Source of the DNA: Arcobacteraceae bacterium
Lineage (GTDB): Bacteria > Campylobacterota > Campylobacteria > Campylobacterales > Arcobacteraceae
DNA length: 64,000 nt
Assembly: GCA_963662945.1 (NCBI GenBank)
Contig: OY759974.1
Coordinates: 1,184,001-1,248,000, forward strand
Reading direction: 5' to 3'
In this document: positions 3,921 through 18,779 of the stretch, piece by piece
How the letters are laid out: each line of letters opens with the position of its first letter
Position numbering within the stretch: the stretch's first letter is position 1
The notes under the pieces: generated by a model
Databases searched by the model: none
What the model saw: only the letters and a program-made list of their open reading frames with translations
What the model was told of the DNA's origin: nothing
Translations under genes and position numbers: made by a program

Positions 3921-4553
3921 ATGAAAGAAAAAATTAAACACTATTTATATTTTACAGTTCTCCCTTTTCTTCTCCAACTTATAGTAAGATTTATTCATCT
4001 TACAAATAAAAAAACATATCATTATCCAAATCAAAACTTTGACAATGAAAACTTAATTGTTGCAATGTGGCATGGTGATTTACTTATGCAACCGCTTAAT
4101 TATAGAAATTTCAAAAAAAATGGAAAAATAAAAGTTATTGTAAGTGTCCATAAAGATGGTGAAATTATACGAAAAGTAGTTGATTATCTTGGAGTTGGAG
4201 GATTAAGTGGTTCTTCCTCAAAGGGTGGAGCAAAAGCACTTATTGGTGCTATAAAAGCCTTAAAAAATGGTATTGATGTTGCTATAACACCAGATGGTCC
4301 AAGAGGTCCAATATATAGTATTGCTGATGGAATTGTACTTTTATCTCAAAAAACAAATACAAAAATTATAGTACTAAGTTCCATACCAACATCTTATTGG
4401 GAAATGAAATCTTGGGATAAATTTGTCGTACCAAAACCTTTTGGAAAAATAGATTTTTATGCAAGTGAACCTTTTAGTGTAGAAAATTTAGAACTAGAAG
4501 AAGCAAAACAACTTATTTACTCAAAAATGATGGAAAATCAACTAAAGAAATAA
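3921..4553 (+). CDS. DUF374 / LpxJ-like lysophospholipid acyltransferase
   Basis: WHG, SxHKDGE, GSSSKGG, TPDGPRGP, SWDKFVVPKPF motifs. Confidence 0.8.
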   Translation: MKEKIKHYLYFTVLPFLLQLIVRFIHLTNKKTYHYPNQNFDNENLIVAMWHGDLLMQPLNYRNFKKNGKIKVIVSVHKDGEIIRKVVDYLGVGGLSGSSSKGGAKALIGAIKALKNGIDVAITPDGPRGPIYSIADGIVLLSQKTNTKIIVLSSIPTSYWEMKSWDKFVVPKPFGKIDFYASEPFSVENLELEEAKQLIYSKMMENQLKK

Positions 4554-4555
4554 TC

Positions 4556-5383
4556 ATGAAAGAAAAATTTTATAAATACTTAGAGGAGTTTTGTGAGTAT
4601 TTATTAGATTTAAAAAACTACTCTCCTCTTACTGTGAAAACTTATAAACAATCAATTGAAAAAGCTATTAAAGCAAGTGAAATCTATGAAGAAAATGGGA
4701 AAACAATTTTTGATATTACAAAATTTAGAATAGAAATTGCTTCCTTAAATCCAAAAACAATCAATAAAAAGATATCAAGTATTAATAGCTTTGTAAGCTA
4801 TTTAGATTCCAAACATATTGATATAAAACTTGTAGGAAATAATACAATCAAATCTCCACAAACTCTTCCAAAACCAATACAAACTAAAAATATTTTTGAA
4901 AGTTTAGAGAATGCAACTTTAGAGGAAAAACTTATTATCGTATTTATTTATTCTTTTGGTGTTCGTATTTCTGAATTAGCAACTTTAAAACTAAAATATA
5001 TAAAAACAAATTCTATACAAGTTACAGGGAAAGGAAATAAACAAAGAGAGATACCTTCAAATCCTGTTGCAAATAATTTATTACAAGAATATCTTTCATT
5101 TTACACTCCATCAGAATATCTTTTTGAAGAAAACTCAAAAGCCCTTACAAAAAGACAAATACAATACAGACTTGAAAAAGCATTTCGTAAAATTGGAATC
5201 AAAGCAACTCCTCATCAATTAAGACATTCTTTTGCTACAGATTTGTTAAATGATGGCGCTAGAATCAATGATATTAGCGAACTTCTTGGGCATAGTAGCT
5301 TAAAAGCAACTGGAATTTATACTAAATTAACCACAAATACAAAGTTAAAACAGTATAATATTGCACATCCATTAAATAAATAA
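4556..5383 (+). CDS. Tyrosine recombinase, XerC/XerD-like
   Basis: Full catalytic set: GVRISE, GKGNK, HQLRHSFAT, LLGH, TGIYT. N-terminal YSPLTVKTY. Confidence 0.88.
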   Translation: MKEKFYKYLEEFCEYLLDLKNYSPLTVKTYKQSIEKAIKASEIYEENGKTIFDITKFRIEIASLNPKTINKKISSINSFVSYLDSKHIDIKLVGNNTIKSPQTLPKPIQTKNIFESLENATLEEKLIIVFIYSFGVRISELATLKLKYIKTNSIQVTGKGNKQREIPSNPVANNLLQEYLSFYTPSEYLFEENSKALTKRQIQYRLEKAFRKIGIKATPHQLRHSFATDLLNDGARINDISELLGHSSLKATGIYTKLTTNTKLKQYNIAHPLNK

Positions 5384-5396
5384 TTTGAGGTCATCT

Positions 5397-7013
5397 ATGT
5401 TTAGTAGTAGTAAAAAGCAATATGTGAATATTTTAAAGCAAAATAAACAATTAAATTTAAACTATGCAATATTACAAGATAAAAAAATCTTGAAGCAAGA
5501 ACAATCATCATTTTTAATCGTTGATAACAATATGCCTCAAGATGCTTTATTTAAGTTAGATGCTTTGCAAAAAAACATACCTTACACTTATCTTTCATCA
5601 CTTTTTGAAGGAGATAGACAACAAGTAATTTTAACAAAAGATATGGATGTGATTGGATATGATAGTGTACAACTTGATAGTAAATACAGTATTGTTATTC
5701 CAAAAAATGAGCTTACAAGTGCTTCAAGATATTTTGCAAATAGTGGGATAGATTATATTATCTCTCCTTTTACTATTTTAAATGAATACGTACAAGATAA
5801 TAGTATTAAAAATTCTCTTAATGTACTTATTTACAATAATGTTGTTTATGTGATGATTTTAAATGACCTTAAAATTATTGTACAATGTGCCGTTAAATCA
5901 TTAACGCCTTTTGATCAGATCACAGATAAAAGTTTTTCAAATGATGAGATTGTTGATCAGAAACTTTATGAAGAGGTTCATTTTCTAGAGATACAACAAT
6001 TTCTTAGTGAAATAGTACAGGATTATTATACACAAAACAATGATGTAGAATTTTTAGAACAAGTAAAAATTTTATATACTCTTAAACCACTTTCTGATGA
6101 ACAGATAAATTCATTATATGAAACAATCATGGTAGATATTGACTATGAAGTTATCAATATGGAACAATATCTCTTTAAAATTACACAAAAAGAGGATATT
6201 ATAAAACATTCATTTGTAAATCCAAGAATCAAAAAACAAAATAAAAATACTTTAAAATGGATTATTTTTGCAGGCATTAGTATTGCCGTTGTTCTTGGAT
6301 TAGTTTATAATCAATTTATCTCTTCACAAGAACTTAAGCAACAAAAAATACAACAACAAAAAGAGATGAAAAAAGTTGCTAAACAAGAACCTGTAGAGGT
6401 AAAAATTATAGAATTTCCAAATCATATTCTCAATAATAACCATCTATTACAAGACGTTTATATGTTATTTGATATAGTGCCATATGATGCTATTTTAAAA
6501 GATTTAGAAATTACTCAAAATAGTTCTACTTATGTATGTACTTTTATTTCTCAGAGTCAATCTTTTGAAGATATGAGAGTAAAATTATTGAACCTTTATA
6601 AAGATTCAAAAATACTTTTAAAACATGAAAATAAATCTATATTAAATATTATCATTGAAAATGAAAACTTCTTAGCTCCTAATAAAAAAATGCAATCAAA
6701 ACAATACGATGATTTTGAATTTATATCTATTGGTAAAGCTACAGATTTTATTAATAAATTACTCTTAGACCAATCTACTATAAAGTTTTTGAATAAAGAG
6801 GAAACAACATATTTAACATATAAATTTGCAATTCAATCTATAGTAAAAACACCTAAAGACTTTTTTGATTTTATAGAAAAATTAAATCAACAAAAAGTAT
6901 CTATAACTTTAGAATATCCTATTGTATTTAGTAAAATAAATGACGGTATTGAAATTAAATATAATTTATCGCTTCATCAAAAAAATAAAGAGCAAGTACA
7001 ACTTAGTAAATAA
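5397..7013 (+). CDS. Single-TM membrane protein, probable PilM/PilN/PilO-like fusion
   Basis: ATG 5397 after GAGG. ~285-aa soluble N-domain, one TM (WIIFAGISIAVVLGLVY), Q/K-rich coil, two C-terminal alpha/beta domains. Lies downstream of miaB-DUF374. Confidence 0.5.
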   Translation: MFSSSKKQYVNILKQNKQLNLNYAILQDKKILKQEQSSFLIVDNNMPQDALFKLDALQKNIPYTYLSSLFEGDRQQVILTKDMDVIGYDSVQLDSKYSIVIPKNELTSASRYFANSGIDYIISPFTILNEYVQDNSIKNSLNVLIYNNVVYVMILNDLKIIVQCAVKSLTPFDQITDKSFSNDEIVDQKLYEEVHFLEIQQFLSEIVQDYYTQNNDVEFLEQVKILYTLKPLSDEQINSLYETIMVDIDYEVINMEQYLFKITQKEDIIKHSFVNPRIKKQNKNTLKWIIFAGISIAVVLGLVYNQFISSQELKQQKIQQQKEMKKVAKQEPVEVKIIEFPNHILNNNHLLQDVYMLFDIVPYDAILKDLEITQNSSTYVCTFISQSQSFEDMRVKLLNLYKDSKILLKHENKSILNIIIENENFLAPNKKMQSKQYDDFEFISIGKATDFINKLLLDQSTIKFLNKEETTYLTYKFAIQSIVKTPKDFFDFIEKLNQQKVSITLEYPIVFSKINDGIEIKYNLSLHQKNKEQVQLSK

Positions 7014-7965
7014 ACTCTTCCAAAGTTGAGAGATATCCACGAATATTATTAGGAATTCTCTCTATCCTACATTTTTCTTTAAATTCTTTAGTCATTATAT
7101 TTTGCATATAAGGTGCAATATAAATTTTATCAACCACAATTGATACTGCTATCTTATGAGAAATAACAACTTCTTTTTTTTGAACAATTTCATCCCTTGT
7201 AGCTTTTGATATTATCAAACCTCTTTGTTTTAACTCTTTATCTATAATTCTAATAGCAACATTTAAATCTTCATTGTATTCATAAATTGTTAATTTTTCA
7301 ATACTTGTTTTAGAAAAATCACCCATTAAAGAATTATAATCTTTTTCTAAATATTCAAAACTATTTATTATGCCACTTTGAAATTTTTCAAGAAGTTTAT
7401 CACTAAAGTTATGTCTAAAATAATTTCTCTTATATGTTTCATCACTATTACTTTCATCTTCAAAGAATCTATAGTTATGACTTATAAGATATTTTTTAAG
7501 AGATTCTTTACTAATTTCTAATAATGGTTTTTTAATTATATAGCCATTTTTTACAATCTCTTTTTCCATTCCCAAAAGTTCACTAAGCCCTGCACCTTTT
7601 GTGAATTGCATTAAAAACCATTCTAATTTATCATTTAATTGATGTGCTGTAAGAAGTGCCTCATAATGATTTTCAATCATTATTGCATCAAAAAATTTAT
7701 ATCTAAAATCTCTTGCTTCTTTTTCACTAAATTTCATATTATCTGGATAATCAGATATAAAACACTTTTTGTTGTATTTATGTGCAAGTTGTGTAGCATA
7801 AATTACTTCATCTTTTGATTGTATTCTTTGATGATAATCCACTATTGCTATATCAAATGGTATGTTTTTTTCAATCAATAAATAAAATAATGCTGTTGAA
7901 TCAACACCTGCACTAAATGCTAAAAGATTTTTTTTTGTATTTATATCTATTTTAAATCTATTCAT
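7003..7965 (-). CDS. tilS: tRNA(Ile)-lysidine synthase TilS
   Basis: PP-loop AFSAGVDS, ARDFRY, TAHQLND, EDESN, RNYFRH. Confidence 0.93.
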   Translation of the reverse strand: MNRFKIDINTKKNLLAFSAGVDSTALFYLLIEKNIPFDIAIVDYHQRIQSKDEVIYATQLAHKYNKKCFISDYPDNMKFSEKEARDFRYKFFDAIMIENHYEALLTAHQLNDKLEWFLMQFTKGAGLSELLGMEKEIVKNGYIIKKPLLEISKESLKKYLISHNYRFFEDESNSDETYKRNYFRHNFSDKLLEKFQSGIINSFEYLEKDYNSLMGDFSKTSIEKLTIYEYNEDLNVAIRIIDKELKQRGLIISKATRDEIVQKKEVVISHKIAVSIVVDKIYIAPYMQNIMTKEFKEKCRIERIPNNIRGYLSTLEEFIY

Positions 7966-8100
7966 ATGGCGATTATATTAAGTTTATAGTTATATAATAC
8001 TTATTATAAGAAAGTATTTTAATTATTATTATAATAATTTATGGTAAATATAAGTTCATATAATATATAATTACTTATTAAATTTCTAGAAGGATAGAAT

Positions 8101-9480
8101 ATGAGTGAAAAAGTTCAGACAACAGTTTATCGTATTAAAAGATATTGGGCATATGCCTTAGCTACTGTAGTAGCAATCGTAACCCCTTTTATTCAGATAA
8201 ACGGAAATCAAATATTTTTATTATCATTTGATAAAAAACAATTACATTTGATGGGAGTTGCATTTGATATGCAAGAATTATATATGATGCCATTTTTATT
8301 AATGTTATTATTTCTTGGTATTTTTGCTGTAACTGCTATTGGAGGTCGTGCTTGGTGTGGATGGGCCTGTCCTCAAACTGTATTTAGAGTTATTTATAGA
8401 GATTTAATTGAAGGAAAACTTTTAGGTTTAAGAAGAATCAAAAATAAACAAAAAGAGCCTGATTGGAAAAATCCTAAAAATGCTTCTAAAAGAATTATTG
8501 CAATTATCATTTGGGCTGCTCTTGCTCTGTTAGCAGCTGCAGATTTCATGTGGTATTTTATTCCACCAACTGATTTTTTTGAATATATGAAAAATCCTAT
8601 GGAACACACGGTATTACTTGGATTTATTTTAGGTGTTGCAGGTTTCTTAGTATATGATGTAATATTTTTACAAGAAAACTTTTGTGTTTATGTTTGTCCT
8701 TATTCAAGAGTACAATCTGTACTTTATGATGATGATACTATTCAAGCTATTTATAGTACAAAAAGAGGTGGAGATATTTACAATGAAAACAAAGAAAAAA
8801 TTGTTTTTAAACAAACTGATTTAGCTAATGAAACAGATGAATGTACTGCTTGTCAAAGTTGTGTGACTGTTTGTCCTACACATATAGATATTAGAAAAGG
8901 GATGCAATTAGAGTGTATTAACTGTCTAGAGTGTGTTGATGCTTGTACTTCTGTTATGGGAAAACTTGGAAAAGAATCATTAGTTCAATGGACAAGTACA
9001 AACCAAATTGAAAAAGACAAACCTACAAAATTAATCAGAAGTAAAACTATAATGTATGCTGCTGCGTTAGTAATAATTGTTGGTATGTTATTTGTTATGG
9101 GTGGTAAAAAAGAATATATGCTACTTAATATCAATAAAACAACTGAACTTTATAAAATAAGAGAAGGTGGTGAAGTTGCAAATAACTTTGTATTACTTTT
9201 CCAAAATACACAAAAAGAAAATTATACTTATAATCTTGAAGTAATAGGTGAATATGCTGGAAAAATCGAAATAAAAAGATTTACACCATTTAAACTAAGC
9301 CATAATAAAATGGCAAAAAAAGTTATTCAACTTTCAACAAAAGAAAGATTAGTTGATAGTGTTACTAAAGATACTCCTATCACTGTAACCTTAAGAGCAT
9401 ATGCAGTTGAGAACCCTAAAGAAATTAGTGTAATTCGACAAGCTGTATTTATCTACCCAAGAGCAGATAAGCTTAAATAA
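8101..9480 (+). CDS. ccoG: cbb3 cytochrome c oxidase accessory protein CcoG
   Basis: GRAWCGWACPQT, FCVYVCPY, CTACQSCVTVCP, CINCLECVDAC, plus TM helices. Confidence 0.93.
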   Translation: MSEKVQTTVYRIKRYWAYALATVVAIVTPFIQINGNQIFLLSFDKKQLHLMGVAFDMQELYMMPFLLMLLFLGIFAVTAIGGRAWCGWACPQTVFRVIYRDLIEGKLLGLRRIKNKQKEPDWKNPKNASKRIIAIIIWAALALLAAADFMWYFIPPTDFFEYMKNPMEHTVLLGFILGVAGFLVYDVIFLQENFCVYVCPYSRVQSVLYDDDTIQAIYSTKRGGDIYNENKEKIVFKQTDLANETDECTACQSCVTVCPTHIDIRKGMQLECINCLECVDACTSVMGKLGKESLVQWTSTNQIEKDKPTKLIRSKTIMYAAALVIIVGMLFVMGGKKEYMLLNINKTTELYKIREGGEVANNFVLLFQNTQKENYTYNLEVIGEYAGKIEIKRFTPFKLSHNKMAKKVIQLSTKERLVDSVTKDTPITVTLRAYAVENPKEISVIRQAVFIYPRADKLK

Positions 9481-11714: not shown

Positions 11715-13184
11715 ATGGCAAGATTAATTGTACTTGGAGGTGGTGTTTCTGGTCACACAGCAGCAACATTTGCTGCAAAGTGGTTAGGAAGTGCTCATGA
11801 AGTTGTGGTTGTAACACCAAATTCTAAATGGAATTGGATACCATCAAATATTTGGGTGGGTGTTGGTCAAATGACACCAGAGGATGTAACATTTGATTTA
11901 GCACCTGTTTATAAAAAAGCTGGAATCACTTACAAACAAGCGAAAGCTGTATCTATTCACCCTAATGGTAAAGAGGGAAGTGATAAAGAGTTCGTAACTA
12001 TTGAATTTACTAATCCTGAAAACGCAGGTCAAACTGAAGAGTTAGAATATGACTACATTATCAATGCAACTGGTCCAAAACTAAACTTTGGAGCAACACC
12101 AGGACTAGGTGAAGGAAGTAACTTAGGTGAACATACAGTGTCAGTTTGTACAGCAGATCATGCACACCATGCGAGTCATGAATTAGAAAAATGTATCAAA
12201 AAAATGAAAGAGGGTCAAAGACAAAAATTCTTAATTGGAACTGGTCACGGTATGTGTACTTGTCAAGGTGCTGCTTTTGAGTATATTTTTAATATTGAAC
12301 ATGAATTAAATAAAGCTGGGGTAAGAGATTTAGCAGATATCAAATGGATATCAAATGAATCTTTCTTAGGGGACTTTGGTGTTGGTGGACTTCATATGAA
12401 AACTATGGGATACGCTGTTAGTTCTAAAATATTTGCTGAATCACTCTTTACAGAAAGAGGGGTAGACTGGATTATCGGTGCTCATGTAAATAAAGTAGAA
12501 GCTGGTAAGGTACATTATGAATTACTTGATGGTTCTATGGGTGAAGAAGAGTTTGATTTTTCTATGCTTATTCCTCCATTTGCAGGTGTAGGTATAAAAG
12601 CTTATGATAAAGATGGTTCTGATATTACAGATACTATTTTTGCTCCAAATGGTTTCTTAAAAGTTGATGCGAACTATGCTGCTGGTGCTTATGAGAACTG
12701 GAAAGCTTCAGATTGGCCAAAAACATATCAAAATCCAACTTATGAAAATATCTTTGCTTGTGGTATTGCTTTTGCACCACCGCATACAATCTCTAAACCA
12801 ATGAGCTCTCCAAATGGAACTCCAATCAACCCTACACCTCCTAGAACAGGTATGCCATCTGGTATTATGGGAAAAACTGTTGCACATAGTATTTGTGACA
12901 GAATTCTAAAAGGGAAAGATGCTCCACTACATGAAGCTAGTATGGCAGAGATGGGTGCAGCTTGTGTGGCTAGTGCTGGTAAAGGTATATTTGATGGAAC
13001 AGCTGCTGCTATGACTATCTATCCTGTTGTTCCTGATTTTGAAAAATATCCAGGAACTGGTAGAGATACTGATTATACTTTTGGTGAAATTGGTCTTGCT
13101 GGGCATTGGATTAAACATATTTTACATTACCTATTCCTATGGAAAGCAAAACTAAAAATGGGATGGACTTTAATTCCAGAATAA
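11715..13184 (+). CDS. sqr: Sulfide:quinone oxidoreductase, type IV (SqrD-like)
   Basis: GGGVSGHT FAD motif, WIPSNIWVGVG, SVCT, TCQGAAFEY, PPRTGMPS, MGAACVASAG, C-terminal LAGHW..IPE. Resembles Chlorobium SqrD as recalled. Confidence 0.9.
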   Translation: MARLIVLGGGVSGHTAATFAAKWLGSAHEVVVVTPNSKWNWIPSNIWVGVGQMTPEDVTFDLAPVYKKAGITYKQAKAVSIHPNGKEGSDKEFVTIEFTNPENAGQTEELEYDYIINATGPKLNFGATPGLGEGSNLGEHTVSVCTADHAHHASHELEKCIKKMKEGQRQKFLIGTGHGMCTCQGAAFEYIFNIEHELNKAGVRDLADIKWISNESFLGDFGVGGLHMKTMGYAVSSKIFAESLFTERGVDWIIGAHVNKVEAGKVHYELLDGSMGEEEFDFSMLIPPFAGVGIKAYDKDGSDITDTIFAPNGFLKVDANYAAGAYENWKASDWPKTYQNPTYENIFACGIAFAPPHTISKPMSSPNGTPINPTPPRTGMPSGIMGKTVAHSICDRILKGKDAPLHEASMAEMGAACVASAGKGIFDGTAAAMTIYPVVPDFEKYPGTGRDTDYTFGEIGLAGHWIKHILHYLFLWKAKLKMGWTLIPE

Positions 13185-13230
13185 GAATTAGGGTGATTAA
13201 TACAATAAAAATATAAAAAGGAAAAATACA

Positions 13231-13401
13231 ATGGCAAAAGTTAAAGAAGAAGAAAAAAACATTAAAGCATATAGTCAAAATTTTACAACAATGACTCCTG
13301 GTCCATTTGCAAAACGAATGAGAACTTGTGTTATCTGGCAATTTATCAGATTTATAATTATCAACCTTAAAATGATAATCGTTGTTGGTAAAAGTCACTA
13401 G
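13231..13401 (+). CDS. Small 56-aa protein downstream of sqr (not in ORF track)
   Basis: SD AAAAGGA, then MAKVKEEEKNIKAYSQNFTTMTPGPFAKRMRTCVIWQFIRFIIINLKMIIVVGKSH*. Fills the gap to the next gene. Confidence 0.75.
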   Translation: MAKVKEEEKNIKAYSQNFTTMTPGPFAKRMRTCVIWQFIRFIIINLKMIIVVGKSH

Positions 13402-13403
13402 TT

Positions 13404-14213
13404 TTGGTTAAAGATATTATTACATACCCAACACCTCCAAGTGTTGAGTATGCAACAGATGTAAGAATTTTTGATGAAAATTTATTTACTTTAATCGAAG
13501 ATTTAAAAGATACGATTAACGCAAATAAATTAGATGGACTTGCTGCTTATCAAATAGGAAATTATTTCAATGTGGTTGTGATCAAACAAGGTGATGAGTT
13601 TTTAGAACTGATTAATCCTAGAGTTATAAATCCTATTGGTAAGGTAACAACGGAAGAGACAACAGCTTATTTTCCTGGACTGAGTGCAAAAGTGCAAAGA
13701 TATGAAAAAATAAGTCTCATATATCAAGATAGAGAAGCGAATCAACACTCCCTTAAGGCTGATGGAGAATTATCTATATTAATCCAACGTAAGGTCGATT
13801 ATACTTTTGGTTCTACTTTTTTAAATAAGCTCTCAAAAGATGAGAAAAAAAGATTTGAAAAAAAACTTGAATTTGGTTCTAATATTGCTATTCCTGAAAG
13901 TTGTCCAATAGTATCATATAAAGATTATCTCAACAAACTTTCAAATATTTTGTTAGTGGTTATTGCACTATTATTAGTTGGATCATTTTTTGTTAGTGAT
14001 GAGACCGCTTTAGAAAATATATGGGATTATCAAAGATATATATCATATGCAACAGTAGTTAATGGTTTTATATATCTAATATATGGCTATTTTGAGGGGA
14101 AAAGATATAGTTCATGTACTAGTTGTCAAATTGGTAATCTTGTAGGAACTTTAATAATAAGTTTTATCAAACTTACAATATTAATGATACTTTCTTACTT
14201 CTTAGTTGCATAA
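13404..14213 (+). CDS. Degenerate peptide deformylase-like domain fused to a 3-TM domain with CxxC
   Basis: IITYP, GLAAYQIG, LINP are present, but EGCLS is ETTAY and QHExDH is QRKVDY. C-terminal TMs with SCTSC. Confidence 0.75.
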   Translation: MVKDIITYPTPPSVEYATDVRIFDENLFTLIEDLKDTINANKLDGLAAYQIGNYFNVVVIKQGDEFLELINPRVINPIGKVTTEETTAYFPGLSAKVQRYEKISLIYQDREANQHSLKADGELSILIQRKVDYTFGSTFLNKLSKDEKKRFEKKLEFGSNIAIPESCPIVSYKDYLNKLSNILLVVIALLLVGSFFVSDETALENIWDYQRYISYATVVNGFIYLIYGYFEGKRYSSCTSCQIGNLVGTLIISFIKLTILMILSYFLVA

Positions 14214-14251
14214 ATTTAATCAAATATAATATTTAGAATTGGAGAACAGAT

Positions 14252-14764
14252 ATGAAAGATAATAATAGTTATTGGAATCCCCTTATTGCTGGATTTTTGC
14301 TTGGTACTGCACTATTTATAAGTTTTATGATAGCAGGTCAAGGAATGGGAGCAAGCGGTGCATTTGCAAGGCTTACAGCACAAGTTACATACCTTTATGA
14401 TGCAACTTTTGCAACAAATAGTTATGTAGCTCCATATTTACGAGATGGTAATGCATTAGCAAATTGGACAGTTATTCAAGTTGTTGGTATATTTATAGGC
14501 GGCTTTATTAGTGCAGCACTTGCAGGAAGAATAAAACAGTCTATTGATAGAGGTGATGGATACCCAATATATAAAAGATTATTTTGGGCTTTTTTAGGTG
14601 GTATGCTTATAGCAGCAGCTACAAGGCTTGCTCGTGGATGTACTAGTGGGCAAGCACTTGATGGAGCAGCAACATTTTCTGTTGGTGCTTGGATTTTTAT
14701 GTTAGCGGCTTTTGGTGCTGGCTTTTTACTAGCTCCATTGTTTAAAAAACAATGGAATATGTAA
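14252..14764 (+). CDS. YeeE/YedE-family sulfur compound transporter subunit
   Basis: WNPLIAG, GMGASGAF, GIFIGGFISA, RLARGCTSG. About 4 TMs. Own -10 TATAAT at 14225. Confidence 0.85.
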   Translation: MKDNNSYWNPLIAGFLLGTALFISFMIAGQGMGASGAFARLTAQVTYLYDATFATNSYVAPYLRDGNALANWTVIQVVGIFIGGFISAALAGRIKQSIDRGDGYPIYKRLFWAFLGGMLIAAATRLARGCTSGQALDGAATFSVGAWIFMLAAFGAGFLLAPLFKKQWNM

Positions 14765-14775
14765 GGAGTTTTGTT

Positions 14776-15372
14776 ATGTATCCATTATATACAACTGGGG
14801 CAATCACAACAAATGAAAATTATCTTTATGCAATTTTTATAGGGATAATGTTTGGATTTATACTTGAACGTGCTGGTTTTGGAAGAGCAAAACATATTGC
14901 ACCAGTATTTTATTTTAGAGATTTAAGAGTATCAAGAGTAATGGTAAGTGCAATACTTACAGGTGCTTTCTGGATTACATTAGCTACATACAATGGATGG
15001 ATAGATTACAATCAAGTGTTTATACCAGCAACTTATGTATGGCCTTATTTAGTAGGTGGTGCAATATTTGGTATAGGTATGGTTATGTCAGGATGGTGTC
15101 CAGGAACTGCTGTAGTAGGTATAGCAAAAGGTAAAATTGATGCAGCAGTATTCTTATTTGGAGTACTAGCTGGTATGTATGTTTATTTTGATATTTTTGA
15201 TAATATTGCACACTTTGCAAACTCTGGATATCTTGGGAAATATACTATTGATAAACTTATTGGAGGAGATATCTATTCATCATTTATTATTACTGTAATT
15301 ATGGGAATTTGTCTTGCAATATTTATGCATACAATGAAAGCAATTAGAGAAAAAAAAGAGGGGGAAAATTAA
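14776..15372 (+). CDS. YeeE/YedE-family sulfur compound transporter subunit
   Basis: ATG 14776 after AAGGAG. FGFILERAGF, GGAIFGIGMVMSGWCPGT. Confidence 0.85.
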   Translation: MYPLYTTGAITTNENYLYAIFIGIMFGFILERAGFGRAKHIAPVFYFRDLRVSRVMVSAILTGAFWITLATYNGWIDYNQVFIPATYVWPYLVGGAIFGIGMVMSGWCPGTAVVGIAKGKIDAAVFLFGVLAGMYVYFDIFDNIAHFANSGYLGKYTIDKLIGGDIYSSFIITVIMGICLAIFMHTMKAIREKKEGEN

Positions 15373-15373
15373 A

Positions 15374-15748
15374 TTGAAATTAATTTCAGCAACAGTAGGG
15401 GTCATTTTACTAATAGCAGCGTTACTTTTATCTTATTTAGCATCATCAAATGGTGAAGCAATGTTAGCAAAAAAAGATGCCAAAGTAGTAGAATATGTAA
15501 ACAAATCAAAAGAAGCATTAGCAGTTGAGAATATAGAAAGTGCTTTAAAATATGCTAAATTAGCAATAGAAGTTGATCCTAAAAACAACAAAGCTTTTCA
15601 AGCATATGATGCAGTATTAAAATTTAAATATAAACCAAAAGAATCAGATGCAGTAAACACTCTACAAAGAGTACAACCATCTTCTGATGAAGATGAAGAA
15701 GATGAAGATGCTGCAAGTGGAGTTATCAAAGTAGATATGGGTTGTTAA
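15374..15748 (+). CDS. Membrane-anchored TPR-like protein with acidic linker and C-terminal Gly-Cys
   Basis: N-terminal hydrophobic helix, ALKYAKLAIEVDPKN TPR-like motif, DEDEEDED linker, ends DMGC. Confidence 0.65.
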   Translation: MKLISATVGVILLIAALLLSYLASSNGEAMLAKKDAKVVEYVNKSKEALAVENIESALKYAKLAIEVDPKNNKAFQAYDAVLKFKYKPKESDAVNTLQRVQPSSDEDEEDEDAASGVIKVDMGC

Positions 15749-15771
15749 TACAACTCATAGTATACTAATAA

Positions 15772-17535
15772 ATGAAATTTTTCTTTTTAGTACTATCTTT
15801 TACTCTTTTTTTATATTCTAACCAACAAAAAGACAATTGTCTTTCTTGTCATCAAAATACAACCCCAATAGACAACTATCACCCTTATGAAGAATTTGGC
15901 TGTGCCTCATGCCATGGAGGAGATGCAAAAGCGATTTCAAAAGTAAAAGCCCATCAAAATATTGTTTTAAATCCAAGTAGGCTAGAACATGCAAGTATGT
16001 TTTGTGGGAAATGTCATCAAGAGATTATTAATCGTGTTGATAAATCTATTATGAATAATATGCATGGTGTCTTAGATGTACTAAAATACCAATTTGGAGA
16101 GACAAAAACTATAGAAAAAACAACAGGAATTAAGTATTTAAAAAATAAGCCAACGGAACAACAATCTTTAGCTGAAGATCATTTTAGTAAACTTTGTGCA
16201 GCTTGTCATATAAACCAAAAAGAAGAGATATTTAAAAATACAGGATTTAGTGAAAGAGGTGGTGGCTGTGTTGATTGTCATAGAGTTGAAGATGGTAAAA
16301 AACTTGAAATTAAAAATGATATTTTAAAGCTCAACCATCCTAAACTCTCTACTAAAATTCCAAGTTCAAATTGTTTAAAATGCCACAATCGTTCTAATCG
16401 TATAGGACTCTCTTATTTTGGACAATTTGAAAGTGAGGGCTATGGCACTCCTTATAAAAATGGAAAACTCACCCATAAAATAGATAAAGATAGATACTAC
16501 TATGAACTTCCAGCAGACATCCATCATAGAAGTACAAAAATGGATTGTATAGATTGTCATACAGAAGCTGGAGTTATGGGAGATGGAAAACATCATGCCC
16601 ATATGGAAGATGCTGTAGATATTAGTTGTAAAGATTGTCATAATCCACAATTTAAACCATCAAATCAATTTGGACTTGCAGGAATGTTAACTGCATTAAA
16701 TGGAAATATCCCTTATTCTACAAAAATTGCTACTACAAAAAAGAAAAATTCGCCAATTTATAATTTACAAAAAGATGATTCTAATATGACTTTTTATAGA
16801 AAACGAGATGGGAAAGCTTTTGATATTTCAAAAATGAGTGATGCTCCTTATCATATTTCTAAAAACCACGAAAGATTAGATTGTACCGCTTGCCATAGCT
16901 CGTGGATACCTAGCTGTTATGGTTGCCATGAAGTATACTTTAAAGATGGGCAACAATATGATTGGATAAAACATAAAAAAACAAAAGGAAAATGGGTGGA
17001 GCTTAGAAGTTATTTACGATATGAGTCCCCTGCCCTTGCTATTGGGTACAATGAAAAGATTATGCCAACTGCTCCTGGCTGTCAAGTGATTGCAACTATC
17101 TATGATAAAGATATAAAAAATGATGAGTTTCACTCTTTTGCCTTTGCTGCTTGGGATCCACACACAACACAAAAACAATCAAGAACTTGTGTAGACTGTC
17201 ATTTTAATCCTCAAACATTGGGACTTGGAGCTGGTATTTTAGATATAAAAGAAAATAATGTCACTTTTACTCCTTACTATCAAAGTAAAGAAGATGGACT
17301 TCCTATTAACTATTCCTTAGATTCATTAATTTCAAAAGAAGGACAACAATTTCAAAGTTTTTCAAGAGAAAAAGCAAGAGGGTTTAATAAACAAGAGGTT
17401 ACTAAAATTATTGAAACGTATAAGTGTATAGTTTGTCATAATAAGTGGGAAGACCCTATTTATAAAGATTTTCAAAAAAGTAAAAAACTTTTTTATGAGA
17501 AAAAAACTTCTTGTAGTAAAGAGATACAAAAATGA
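15772..17535 (+). CDS. Exported multiheme cytochrome c (12 CxxCH)
   Basis: Signal peptide. CLSCH, CASCH, CGKCH, CAACH, CVDCH, CLKCH, CIDCH, CKDCH, CTACH, CYGCH, CVDCH, CIVCH. Confidence 0.9.
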   Translation: MKFFFLVLSFTLFLYSNQQKDNCLSCHQNTTPIDNYHPYEEFGCASCHGGDAKAISKVKAHQNIVLNPSRLEHASMFCGKCHQEIINRVDKSIMNNMHGVLDVLKYQFGETKTIEKTTGIKYLKNKPTEQQSLAEDHFSKLCAACHINQKEEIFKNTGFSERGGGCVDCHRVEDGKKLEIKNDILKLNHPKLSTKIPSSNCLKCHNRSNRIGLSYFGQFESEGYGTPYKNGKLTHKIDKDRYYYELPADIHHRSTKMDCIDCHTEAGVMGDGKHHAHMEDAVDISCKDCHNPQFKPSNQFGLAGMLTALNGNIPYSTKIATTKKKNSPIYNLQKDDSNMTFYRKRDGKAFDISKMSDAPYHISKNHERLDCTACHSSWIPSCYGCHEVYFKDGQQYDWIKHKKTKGKWVELRSYLRYESPALAIGYNEKIMPTAPGCQVIATIYDKDIKNDEFHSFAFAAWDPHTTQKQSRTCVDCHFNPQTLGLGAGILDIKENNVTFTPYYQSKEDGLPINYSLDSLISKEGQQFQSFSREKARGFNKQEVTKIIETYKCIVCHNKWEDPIYKDFQKSKKLFYEKKTSCSKEIQK

Positions 17536-18779
17536 TGAAATATTTTCTTATTCTAATCCCTCTATTTCTATTTAGTAATGAATGTTTAACTTGTCATCCT
17601 AAAAAAATGGAACAATGTGCAAATTCAAATCACTATACACTTAAAAATGCAATCAACATTACACGAACTACTTGGGGAGTGAAGAATAGTAATGTAACTC
17701 TTCAAACACTACCTCATCCAAGTAATAACATAAAAAAACCACAAGATTTAGTTGATGATTTTTTACGAAGAAAATGTTTAAAATGTCATCTTACAAGTCA
17801 AAATATCAACCAAACAAATAATCTATGTCTAGCTTGTCATAATCCACACAAAAATAACTTAGATAGTACCAAAGCAAAACCTACACAAGAGAAGTGTCTT
17901 AAATGTCACAACAATGAATTTATAGGAACTGATTATCTTGGACTTTTCCCACATGATTATGATAAAGCATATAGAAGTCCACTTACAAAAGATGGTTACT
18001 ATCCAGAGCGACCTTATGGGATAGATTTTCATCACCTAAACTCTGATATTCATCATCAAAAAGGTTTATCTTGTGTCTATTGCCATAAAAAAAATAAAAA
18101 TAAAAGTTGGGAAAATAAAGTTGATTGTAAATCATGTCACGACAACTTAACACAGAATAATCATAAAAGCTATCATAATACTCTTTCCTGTAATAGTTGT
18201 CATAGTTCTTGGAATATAAGTAGTTATGAACTTAATGTTTTAAGAGATGATACGAAAAACTATAAACAATGGAAAAGACTCACTGTACAAGAAGATGAAT
18301 ATCTTGAAAATTTTTTAAATAAAGCTCTTAAAAACCCAGAAACTAAACCTCAAATGCCTGATTATCTTACAAATACATTGGAAGACGGTGTTTGGTATAG
18401 TGGTTGGAAATTTAGAAGATGGGAAAACTTTTTTTTAGTTAATAGTGATGATGAAACAATCAAAATTGCAAAACCAATGTTTCAATATAGAATTAGTTAT
18501 AAAGATAAAAATGACAAAATTATTCTTGATGATATTAATATGATAGATGGTAAAAAAATAGAAGTTTTTTTACCGAAAACACCACACACCATAACAAAAA
18601 AAGCAAAATCTTGTGAAATGTGTCATGAAAATAAAATTATGTTAGATAGAAACATTATCAATAAAAATTTATTTCAAGGAACTATTTTAAAAGGTTCACC
18701 ATTATCTAAAAAACAATTAGAAAAACTCCAATCACCACTTTATAAAAAGGAGCGAGCAAAAATACTTTTTTCTCACTAA
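17532..18779 (+). CDS. Exported multiheme cytochrome c (8 CxxCH)
   Basis: Signal peptide. CLTCH, CLKCH, CLACH, CLKCH, CVYCH, CKSCH, CNSCH, CEMCH. ATGA overlap with the upstream gene. Confidence 0.9.
   Translation: MMKYFLILIPLFLFSNECLTCHPKKMEQCANSNHYTLKNAINITRTTWGVKNSNVTLQTLPHPSNNIKKPQDLVDDFLRRKCLKCHLTSQNINQTNNLCLACHNPHKNNLDSTKAKPTQEKCLKCHNNEFIGTDYLGLFPHDYDKAYRSPLTKDGYYPERPYGIDFHHLNSDIHHQKGLSCVYCHKKNKNKSWENKVDCKSCHDNLTQNNHKSYHNTLSCNSCHSSWNISSYELNVLRDDTKNYKQWKRLTVQEDEYLENFLNKALKNPETKPQMPDYLTNTLEDGVWYSGWKFRRWENFFLVNSDDETIKIAKPMFQYRISYKDKNDKIILDDINMIDGKKIEVFLPKTPHTITKKAKSCEMCHENKIMLDRNIINKNLFQGTILKGSPLSKKQLEKLQSPLYKKERAKILFSH

Follow-up and report, generated by a model that had tools for sequence, protein, structure and literature searches.

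What do eight tightly packed, co-oriented genes with cysteine and heme motifs do in the genome of an Arcobacteraceae bacterium, and do they work as one system? The question is raised by positions 11715-18779 of a 64,000-nucleotide (nt) stretch of contig OY759974.1 (positions 1,184,001 to 1,248,000 of the forward strand, assembly GCA_963662945.1), hereafter the window. A first-pass annotation, made from the letters alone, read the eight genes as a single undescribed system in which sulfane sulfur generated by a sulfide:quinone reductase (SQR), the product of the first gene, is handled by the products of the last five. We labeled the eight open reading frames (ORFs) g1 to g8 in order. All were found where that annotation had placed them, at 11715-18779 on the plus strand, with small gaps between them (46, 2, 38, -13, 1, 23, and -4 nt from g1 to g8). 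Comparison of gene neighborhoods indicates, on the other hand, that the locus consists of two separately conserved modules, which are neighbors in this genus, rather than of one system. Module 1 (11715-14213) comprises g1 to g3 and module 2 (14252-18779) comprises g4 to g8. With a probability of about one half, we read module 2 as a periplasmic redox system for sulfane sulfur (less likely selenium or tellurium) that acts on a swinging-arm carrier. The features are as follows.

11715-13184, plus strand: g1, SQR homologue of 489 amino acids (aa); Pyr_redox_2, 38.9 bits
13231-13401, plus strand: g2, conserved membrane micro-protein of 56 aa, with a hydrophobic C-terminal helix and the end ...KSH
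13404-14213, plus strand: g3, dead deformylase fold with a hydrophobic C-terminal extension, 269 aa, membrane-anchored; Pep_deformylase, 105 bits
14252-14764, plus strand: g4, YeeE/YedE half of the C-terminal-half type, PmpA-like, 170 aa; Sulf_transp, 66.2 bits, profile positions 175-308
14752-15372, plus strand: g5, YeeE/YedE half of the N-terminal-half type, PmpB-like, 206 aa; Sulf_transp, 64.8 bits, profile positions 1-153
15374-15748, plus strand: g6, membrane-tethered small protein of 124 aa with the end ...VDMGC, proposed swinging-arm carrier
15749-15771, no strand: site at which relatives have a periplasmic rhodanese gene, deleted here (alignment to locus L032)
15772-17535, plus strand: g7, ExtM-like cytochrome c of 587 aa with 12 hemes (12 CXXCH motifs) and a conserved free Cys437 (PGCQ)
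17532-18779, plus strand: g8, ExtN-like cytochrome c of 415 aa with 8 hemes (8 CXXCH motifs)

The split into two modules is drawn from comparative genomics, the promoter scan being uninformative. A TATAAT hexamer is indeed located at 14225-14230, where a separate -10 element had been proposed. A promoter/terminator consensus scan of the region returned 48 sites, compared with 43.4 ± 6.0 in shuffled sequences, i.e. chance level, and did not list the site at 14225.

Loci holding a relative of g7 were collected by a pattern scan with one genome per species. This yielded 69 loci from metagenome-assembled genomes (MAGs) labelled Arcobacteraceae, Sulfurospirillum, Nitratifractor, Hippea/Desulfurellales, and Desulfobacteraceae, in which partner genes were grouped by all-against-all clustering of ORFs. 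Because many loci end at contig edges, the partner counts are lower bounds. The commonest partner is the small protein ending in Gly-Cys (GC protein, g6 in the window), present in 46 of the 69 loci. It is followed by a cytochrome b (37 loci), a Rieske protein (34 loci), a 753-aa PhsA-like molybdenum (Mo) subunit with a Tat signal and the iron-sulfur (FeS) subunit of the same enzyme (27 loci each), a two-domain rhodanese (24 loci), an NrfD-like subunit (23 loci), the YeeE halves (22 loci), a TorD-like chaperone (19 loci), and a one-domain rhodanese (12 loci). SQR and the pseudo-deformylase are found in five loci each, in five MAGs labelled Arcobacteraceae.

Two gene orders recur among these loci. 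Type A runs YeeEa-YeeEb-GC-rhodanese-12-heme cytochrome-8-heme cytochrome. Of the 22 loci with YeeE genes, 21 have the GC gene immediately after YeeEb, and 20 of these 21 continue with the rhodanese gene. Type B, the Sulfurospirillum type, runs (regulator-kinase)-rhodanese-TorD-NrfD-Mo subunit-FeS-GC-Rieske-cytochrome b-12-heme cytochrome-8/10-heme cytochrome, with FeS followed by GC in 26 of the 27 loci that have the Mo enzyme. Two loci (L053 and L078) carry both sets. In the type-B locus L077, the Mo subunit scores 489 bits against the NCBIfam PhsA model (short of its cut-off of 694), ExtP is the top NCBIfam match of the cytochrome b (67 bits, below cut-off), the rhodanese matches ExtH (56 bits, below cut-off) and 3-mercaptopyruvate sulfurtransferase, and the GC protein has no NCBIfam match. 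The sensor kinase encoded upstream in type-B loci (L077 1396-2838) contains a CXXCH motif (CMKCH) in its N-terminal part, which suggests a heme c-binding sensor for the type-B cluster.

The proposal that the last five genes form a module is therefore upheld, the YeeE pair and GC gene being contiguous almost wherever the pair occurs and the GC gene lying with the cytochromes in two thirds of the loci (46/69). Co-occurrence was confirmed for the YeeE pair, the GC protein, and the cytochromes, but SQR joins them in only five loci. Similarly, a sulfur or chalcogen role for these genes gains support from the rhodanese (20/21) and the PhsA-like enzyme (27 loci) in relatives, but the derivation of the sulfur from SQR is a link limited to one genus. 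The absence of Sox, Psr, Ttr, and TsdA genes from the cluster is true for the window, although a Psr/Phs-type enzyme does occur in the clusters of relatives.

These counts bear directly on the view of the eight genes as one system processing SQR-derived sulfane sulfur. Co-orientation and small gaps agree with it, as does the fact that the eight-gene order, together with the rhodanese gene, is kept in the closest relatives (L032-L035). However, the order is rearranged in L036, where a 4.7-kb insert splits the module and the pseudo-deformylase gene is downstream of the cytochromes. SQR and the pseudo-deformylase share the cytochrome locus in 5/69 loci only, and the order SQR (75-88% identical)-56-aa peptide-pseudo-deformylase is found as a separate triad in 25 of 29 loci (L110-L138). 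Among the four exceptions, one locus is ended by a contig edge and three have no SQR within 1.5 kb. In a sample of 401 Campylobacterota genomes, the SQR triad alone is seen in 51 and the cytochromes in 8. We therefore consider a single eight-gene system quite improbable. As a separate observation, the insert in L036 (the same locus as L027, from the same genus) spans 4519-9052, between the rhodanese gene and the cytochrome pair, and contains a methyl-accepting-like gene and two genes that, by reading alone, resemble an arsenate reductase and an arsenite-efflux permease.

The phylum sample gives a consistent picture, to be taken as association and not as statistics because related genomes are not independent. 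Eight of the 401 genomes have a g7 orthologue (E ≤ 1e-170) and 28 more have a paralogue of ~800 aa. Full-length matches to the GC protein (E ≤ 1e-12) occur in 12 genomes, including all eight with a g7 orthologue; the other 38 matches at E ≤ 1e-3 are short and TPR-like.

The description of g6 as a Gly-Cys arm protein is borne out by its family. Without exception, the 48 locus homologues end in Gly-Cys, as do the best 120 of 127 clusters of database relatives, none of which has a Pfam domain. As a background, the 69 loci hold 3,268 complete ORFs of 45-250 aa, of which 52 end in Gly-Cys. Of these 52, 48 are the family itself, and the four others (among 3,220 non-family ORFs) are one family fragment, two ORFs beside YeeE in Desulfobacteraceae loci that resemble additional carriers, and one spurious antisense ORF. 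Conservation of the terminal Gly-Cys is thus far above chance. The family body is a helical hairpin of ~50 residues, followed by a variable Pro/Ala/acidic linker and the end motif [D/E][M/L]GC or [F/L]EGC, and the N terminus is an anchor in type-A loci and signal-peptide-like in type-B loci. In the AlphaFold2 (AF2) model of g6, helices span residues 2-50, 54-67, and 72-85, and residues ~90-124 have a pLDDT of 54-66. This low-confidence tail of ~35 residues is acidic, with 11 Asp/Glu vs 2 Lys/Arg. No Pfam or NCBIfam family was found above cut-off for g6, SoxY (PF13501) gave no match at E ≤ 0.1, and the ESM Atlas returned generic small TPR clusters only (scores of 0.90-0.95), which serve as leads. 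Complex prediction for g7 (residues 20-587) with g6 (residues 30-124) gave scores of 0.33, 0.02, and 0.14 relative to a mark of 0.32, and was counted neither for nor against binding.

The two GC-ended ORFs from Desulfobacteraceae encode 139 aa (...EEEGC; L081 3719-5365), beside a 399-aa ORF matching YeeEb, and 154 aa (...DDEGC; L080 6610-8871), beside a split YeeE pair. A crude signal-peptide pattern is passed by the former and failed by the latter. The YeeE-GC pairing thus seems to reach beyond Campylobacterota.

A split YeeE had also been proposed for g4 and g5, and the complementary halves of the Sulf_transp profile (Pfam PF04143, cut-off 27 bits) bear this out. Each half scores above the gathering threshold and has a single pore-type Cys (Cys130 in g4, Cys116 in g5), as expected for the PmpAB-type split form; g5 additionally matches DUF6691 (33 bits). 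Relatives of g5 align only from residue 9-10, suggesting that the true start may be the second Met (~14776). Against NCBIfam, the two halves score best with selenium-type YedE models (51 and 37 bits, far short of the cut-offs), and the TsuA/TsuB models (NF041049, NF052577) give 19-30 bits vs cut-offs of 645 and 400. A selenium-assimilation role for the YeeE halves was considered and ruled out, since no SelD was found above cut-off in the genome. PmpA and PmpB are half-size YeeE proteins with one conserved Cys each, for which a heterodimer is proposed, and in the SoxT model carrier-bound sulfur is presented to the channel by a thiol protein of the periplasm that has a Cys motif at its C terminus (PMC11582611). 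The window resembles the former in having two half-size YeeE proteins with one Cys each, although its halves are longer (170 and 206 aa vs ~130). In contrast to SoxT systems, the partner is a new, anchored GC-tailed protein rather than a DsbA/SoxS-type thioredoxin, and, unlike in PmpAB/SoxT-type systems, the genome gave no match above cut-off for a cytoplasmic acceptor of the TusA type.

Exactly 12 and 8 CXXCH motifs were counted in g7 and g8, in line with the first-pass annotation, which had called the system as a whole undescribed and had named Geobacter ExtM/CbcM-type and other multiheme families for comparison. Profile comparison with hidden Markov models (HMMs) shows that they do not form an unknown family and identifies them as distant full-length homologues of the Geobacter cytochromes ExtM and ExtN (CbcM/N of Cbc6), a named family whose role is not established. 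Indeed, g7 aligns with the NCBIfam ExtM profile (NF040943, an equivalog model) over positions 4-586 of 599 and scores 301.3 bits, short of the cut-off of 800. g8 scores 74.2 bits against ExtN (NF040967) over residues 18-265, short of the cut-off of 200. ExtM proteins over the cut-off were found in 11 genomes of a 401-genome sample of the phylum reached via locus L080. Compared with six of them, g7 is ~29% identical and has in common 12 CXXCH motifs, a C..CHNRS.R motif, and the Cys of PGCQ, a column that aligns in all seven proteins. The g7 family gives 569 matches at E ≤ 1e-5, almost all unnamed, the best 120 having identities of 53% or more. g8 is paralogous to residues ~78-480 of g7 (21-24% identity), and a g8-type gene always follows the 12-heme gene. 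Among 42 complete g8 orthologues, the heme number is 8 in 34, 10 in 7, and 5 in 1.

The AF2 model of g7 (from a 61-sequence alignment) has a pLDDT of 85.7 and a pTM of 0.82, with a beta-rich region at 379-460. An exhaustive VIA-align search with this model found a single chain above Z 5, that of the Shewanella octaheme cytochrome c 1sp3_A, at Z 7.6 and a root-mean-square deviation of 4.4 over 252 of 436 residues (model 70-552 vs chain 19-436, 18% identity); the next chain is at Z 2.2. We take 1sp3 to be the octaheme tetrathionate reductase (OTR), in agreement with a reference title, the title of the entry itself being 'octaheme cytochrome c'. An OTR-like fold of g7 may be considered a lead, held as such because Z is under 8 and the sequence profile is negative. 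The likeness to the S. oneidensis protein extends to the weight per heme, 6.1 kDa there and 5.4-6.1 kDa in g7/g8. Against this, 1sp3 has eight hemes vs twelve in g7 and no match at the sequence level, the likeness being that of a model at Z 7.6. PDB sequence searches with g7 and g8 returned generic heme-motif matches only (E > 0.04).

Two further observations concern this cytochrome family. The ~800-aa paralogues, found in 28 of the 401 genomes of the Campylobacterota sample and thus commoner there than g7 orthologues, likewise have 12 CXXCH motifs, the PGCQ Cys, and C..CHNR (L104 12336-14843, minus strand). In addition, the NCBIfam model NF040968 ('b-type cytochrome iron-sulfur cluster-binding subunit ExtO') reaches 678 bits over the full length of a multiheme ExtN (L152 10334-11590), vs 674 for the ExtN model itself, and also matches g7, g8, and the L077 cytochrome. 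It seems to describe ExtN-type cytochromes and not a Rieske protein.

The homology to ExtM leads to a comparison with Geobacter-type ext clusters. In G. sulfurreducens, the cluster extHIJKLMNOPQS encodes ExtM (12 hemes) and ExtN (10 hemes), two of the few cytochromes that every Geobacter genome in the published comparison retains (PMC5877670). When six Geobacter-type loci around an over-cut-off ExtM were inspected, all six were found to have a small GC-ended ORF upstream of ExtM, with a signal-peptide-like N terminus. Four of these ORFs lie at the position of ExtJ and end in ...QGC, and the other two are Lys/Ala-rich, encode 68-71 aa, follow the FeS subunit, and end in ...SGC. Three of the four proteins at the ExtJ position were scanned, and all score above the cut-off of the NCBIfam ExtJ model (NF040942; 81, 81, and 64 vs 52.5 bits). 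The neighbors in one of these loci (L152) match ExtH (544 bits), ExtI (690), ExtKL (457), and ExtN (674). Moreover, the ExtH-like rhodanese lipoproteins of five loci (L151, L152, L154, L155, L156) all have a Gly-rich end with a terminal Cys, a feature with no counterpart among the Campylobacterota rhodaneses, of which no complete ORF ends in Cys.

Homology between g6 and ExtJ was considered and ruled out, there being no ExtJ HMM match for g6 (E ≤ 0.1) or for the L077 GC protein (E ≤ 0.01). Since homology is undetectable, the common feature is a small exported protein with a terminal Gly-Cys, and not a fold. g6 thus fits a feature seen in ExtJ (small, exported, with a Gly-Cys end, beside an ExtM-type cytochrome) that is absent from the published description of ExtJ, which, in the portions available, is referred to only as a small or hypothetical periplasmic protein. 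The window and the ext clusters also have in common an adjacent pair of a 12-heme and an 8-heme cytochrome (8-10-heme in ext) with the PGCQ Cys, and relatives of the window carry a rhodanese (ExtH in ext) and, in the Sulfurospirillum-type loci, a Rieske protein and a cytochrome b (ExtO/P). On the other hand, the window contains no porin ExtI, selenoprotein cytochrome ExtKL, ExtO/P/Q/S, or rhodanese, it adds a split YeeE, and g6 has a helical-hairpin body without detectable homology to ExtJ.

On the observed gene content, motifs, homology, and co-occurrence, the following mechanism can be proposed for module 2. The PmpAB-type split YeeE channel would move a sulfur species across the inner membrane. 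The tethered GC protein would hold sulfur on its C-terminal Gly-Cys thiol, at the tip of the flexible acidic arm, and the adduct would most likely be a persulfide, a polysulfide, or a thiosulfonate. The ExtM-like 12-heme cytochrome, with its invariant free PGCQ Cys and perhaps an OTR-like fold, would make or break the S-S bond of the carrier-bound species, and the ExtN-like 8-heme cytochrome, its paralogue, would relay electrons for it. The arm would be loaded, in relatives, by a periplasmic rhodanese that this strain has lost, and in Sulfurospirillum-type loci the same trio would work beside the PhsA-like molybdoenzyme and a Rieske/cytochrome b quinol oxidase with which it is encoded. The choice of sulfur over selenium as substrate, the direction in which electrons flow, the contact of the arm with the cytochrome, and any functional coupling to the neighboring SQR are our inferences.

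The same architecture could serve selenite/tellurite reduction or detoxification, with the Cys and the rhodanese carrying selenium (as selenotrisulfide or perselenide) and the cytochromes supplying electrons. NCBIfam labels the homologous gene set 'selenite/tellurite reduction operon', and the selenium-type YedE models were, as mentioned above, the top matches of the YeeE halves, far under their cut-offs. In addition, an extI mutant of Geobacter is impaired in selenite/tellurite reduction and ExtKL is a predicted selenoprotein (PMC5877670). That phenotype, however, concerns the porin ExtI, and both ExtI and ExtKL are absent here. Without a SelD above cut-off, selenium assimilation is not expected, and the genomic context is sulfur-typed, with SQR adjoining and the PhsA-like enzyme and rhodanese in relatives. 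Although sequence alone cannot separate sulfur from selenium, we regard a selenium or tellurium substrate as unlikely.

Alternatively, the cytochromes might be a pure relay, i.e. a Cbc6-type conduit to cytochrome c, oxidases, or extracellular acceptors, downstream of an unrelated YeeE-GC sulfur-uptake unit. Cbc6 (CbcMNOPQR) comprises the same genes as ext and is viewed as a predicted quinol:cytochrome c oxidoreductase in a 2026 review, according to which its physiological roles 'remain unknown' (PMC13591261), and ext clusters contribute partly to Fe/Mn oxide reduction. YeeEa-YeeEb-GC(-rhodanese) units do occur apart from the cytochromes, as second GC copies elsewhere in three genomes (G124, G212, and G377) and, in three others (G121, G363, and G319), without a g7 orthologue, although in G121 the unit lies 4 kb from an 835-aa paralogue. 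The weight per heme is also close to relay-type values. In YeeE-less loci, in contrast, a second subtype of GC protein adjoins the cytochromes (26 of the 27 Mo-enzyme loci), and the unrelated ExtJ with the same Gly-Cys end sits in Geobacter-type clusters. Furthermore, a non-heme PGCQ Cys that is invariant from Arcobacteraceae to Geobacter-type ExtM would be unexpected in a pure relay, an explanation that we find rather improbable.

Several points nevertheless weigh against a sulfane-sulfur redox system. According to PMC5877670, ExtI is the only component with a phenotype, and neither this phenotype nor the contribution of ext clusters to metal oxide reduction is sulfur chemistry. The scores of g7 and g8 are far below the equivalog cut-offs (301 vs 800 and 74 vs 200). 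The similarity to 1sp3 is below Z 8, a level that can reflect a common arrangement, Foldseek of the g7 model against the PDB gave no match at E ≤ 0.001, and a profile of 61 g7 relatives found neither the 1sp3 chain nor any octaheme reductase by sequence. According to a review, 5.4-6.1 kDa per heme falls in a zone ambiguous between relay and catalytic proteins. Because g6 has no detectable sequence homology to ExtJ, their common Gly-Cys end may be convergent, or coincidental in function. Finally, several components were not found in this strain: no TusA domain that could accept imported sulfur scored above cut-off (best 17.4 vs 28.6 bits), no quinol or cytochrome partner for g7/g8 was identified in this strain, and the rhodanese (present in 20/21 comparable loci), the Rieske/cytochrome b pair, and the Mo enzyme are missing, so that module 2 may here be impaired or work differently.

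The loss of the rhodanese can be traced precisely. Window positions 15733-15782 align with L032 6663-6706, and from 15772 onward the window aligns with L032 7475 onward, skipping the rhodanese ORF (L032 6810-7397). Relative to L032 and L034, the gene is therefore precisely deleted. A tblastn search (E < 1e-4) for the two cluster rhodaneses gave no orthologue at any other place in the genome. This rules out mere relocation of the gene, although 10 unrelated rhodanese-domain matches exist. Using L077 queries and the same threshold, tblastn found no ExtO/P-type Rieske protein or cytochrome b, so the Cbc6 operon context is lacking although g8 is present, and no PhsA-like enzyme was found by tblastn. 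With protein identities of 62% and 32-39% to the closest relatives, the g5-g6 segment has diverged much further than g3 or g7 (~87%).

A precise deletion of a gene that follows the GC gene in nearly all comparable loci (20/21), together with the lack of an obvious ribosome-binding site for g7 in its 23-nt spacer, could mean that module 2 is a decaying, non-functional remnant in this strain. This is very improbable: the five remaining ORFs are intact, with all heme motifs and both channel Cys kept, the 10 other rhodanese-domain matches might substitute, and L078 likewise has no rhodanese gene after the GC gene.

Module 1 is a conserved unit of its own, because the triad recurs in 25 of the 29 loci mentioned above. 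The closest solved relative of g1 is the Aquifex SQR 3hyv (E 4e-38), and Cys145, Cys183, and Cys417 of g1 align opposite three Cys of 3hyv, which we take to be the catalytic redox Cys. With an FAD-binding fold and the three aligned Cys, g1 belongs with the SQRs. Pfam and NCBIfam scans gave no match for g2, but its columns TM.P...RT....Q..RF..IN..M.....KSH are at least 90% conserved, and a Cys of the family is kept in 23 of 24 readable sequences. In an alignment of g3 with the genuine peptide deformylase of the genome (Def, C1:1649123-1649662), g3 has other residues in place of the metal-ligand Cys (EGCLS-type) and of the two His and the Glu of HExxH, and so do four g3 orthologues in the same alignment. 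g3 is thus not an active deformylase and keeps the fold alone, in agreement with its initial description as dead. Its extension carries CP and C.SCQ.GN columns at least 90% conserved across 29 sequences. Public records call the family, which is present in the 51 sampled Campylobacterota genomes mentioned above, 'peptide deformylase', mostly in Sulfurimonas. We infer that module 1 is probably an SQR with two membrane accessory proteins. The genome also has SoxB, SoxY (C1:909453-909758), another YeeE locus, and two further SQR paralogues with weaker matches; its Sox genes and SQR paralogues mark it as that of a sulfur oxidizer. One weaker SQR paralogue (C1:504237-506254, 24.6% identity to g1) adjoins an ORF with three rhodanese domains.

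How module 2 relates to known periplasmic sulfur systems can now be considered. SoxY has a Gly-containing flexible C-terminal arm motif and SoxA a Cys-ligated heme, and the Sox system (SoxYZ with SoxXA) resembles module 2 in concept, i.e. a periplasmic Cys-arm carrier acted on by c-type cytochromes. It differs in that g6 has no sequence relation to SoxY, the genome's own SoxY and SoxB lie elsewhere, the Cys of g6 is the very last residue, and the cytochromes have 12 and 8 hemes. Wolinella-type polysulfide respiration uses PsrABC with Sud as a periplasmic sulfur transferase. Sulfurospirillum-type relatives of module 2 recall the Wolinella-type PsrABC plus Sud arrangement by combining a PhsA/PsrA-like Mo enzyme, FeS, and NrfD-like subunits with a periplasmic rhodanese. 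The window, in contrast, has none of those genes, and the classical Psr/Sud system has nothing that corresponds to the GC protein or to the ExtM/ExtN pair.

More tentatively, and with distinctly less confidence than we attach to module 2 itself, the Gly-Cys-ended small exported proteins (the g6 family, the unrelated ExtJ, and the Cys tails of ExtH) may constitute a third periplasmic swinging-arm chalcogen carrier beside SoxY and DsrC, and may be the true substrates of ExtM/ExtN. ExtM would then make or break S-S (or S-Se) bonds on a protein-bound substrate via its PGCQ Cys.

What appears to be new here are the Campylobacterota architectures and the Gly-Cys tail common to different phyla, the ext/Cbc6 kind of cluster being already known. 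Searches of the literature, with subscription journals and supplements outside their coverage, found no description of the Campylobacterota cluster, of a pairing of SQR with a deformylase (Sulfurimonas, SQR, and deformylase in combination included), or of the Gly-Cys end of ExtJ and its occurrence across phyla.

Taken together, these findings bring to light two protein families in sulfur-oxidizing Campylobacterota: a misannotated family, the pseudo-deformylase, partnered with SQR and a 56-aa peptide, and an unannotated one without a Pfam entry, the GC-tailed protein. They also tie the ExtM/ExtN pair, in three distant lineages, to the same logic of a rhodanese plus a small exported Gly-Cys-ended protein, and in Campylobacterota further tie an ExtM/ExtN-like pair to YeeE channels and a PhsA-like enzyme. 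The Gly-Cys tail gives a testable idea for the function of the long-unexplained ExtM/ExtN family. For cytochromes that are conserved throughout the genus Geobacter and still described as being of unknown role, this, if true, would supply a chemistry.

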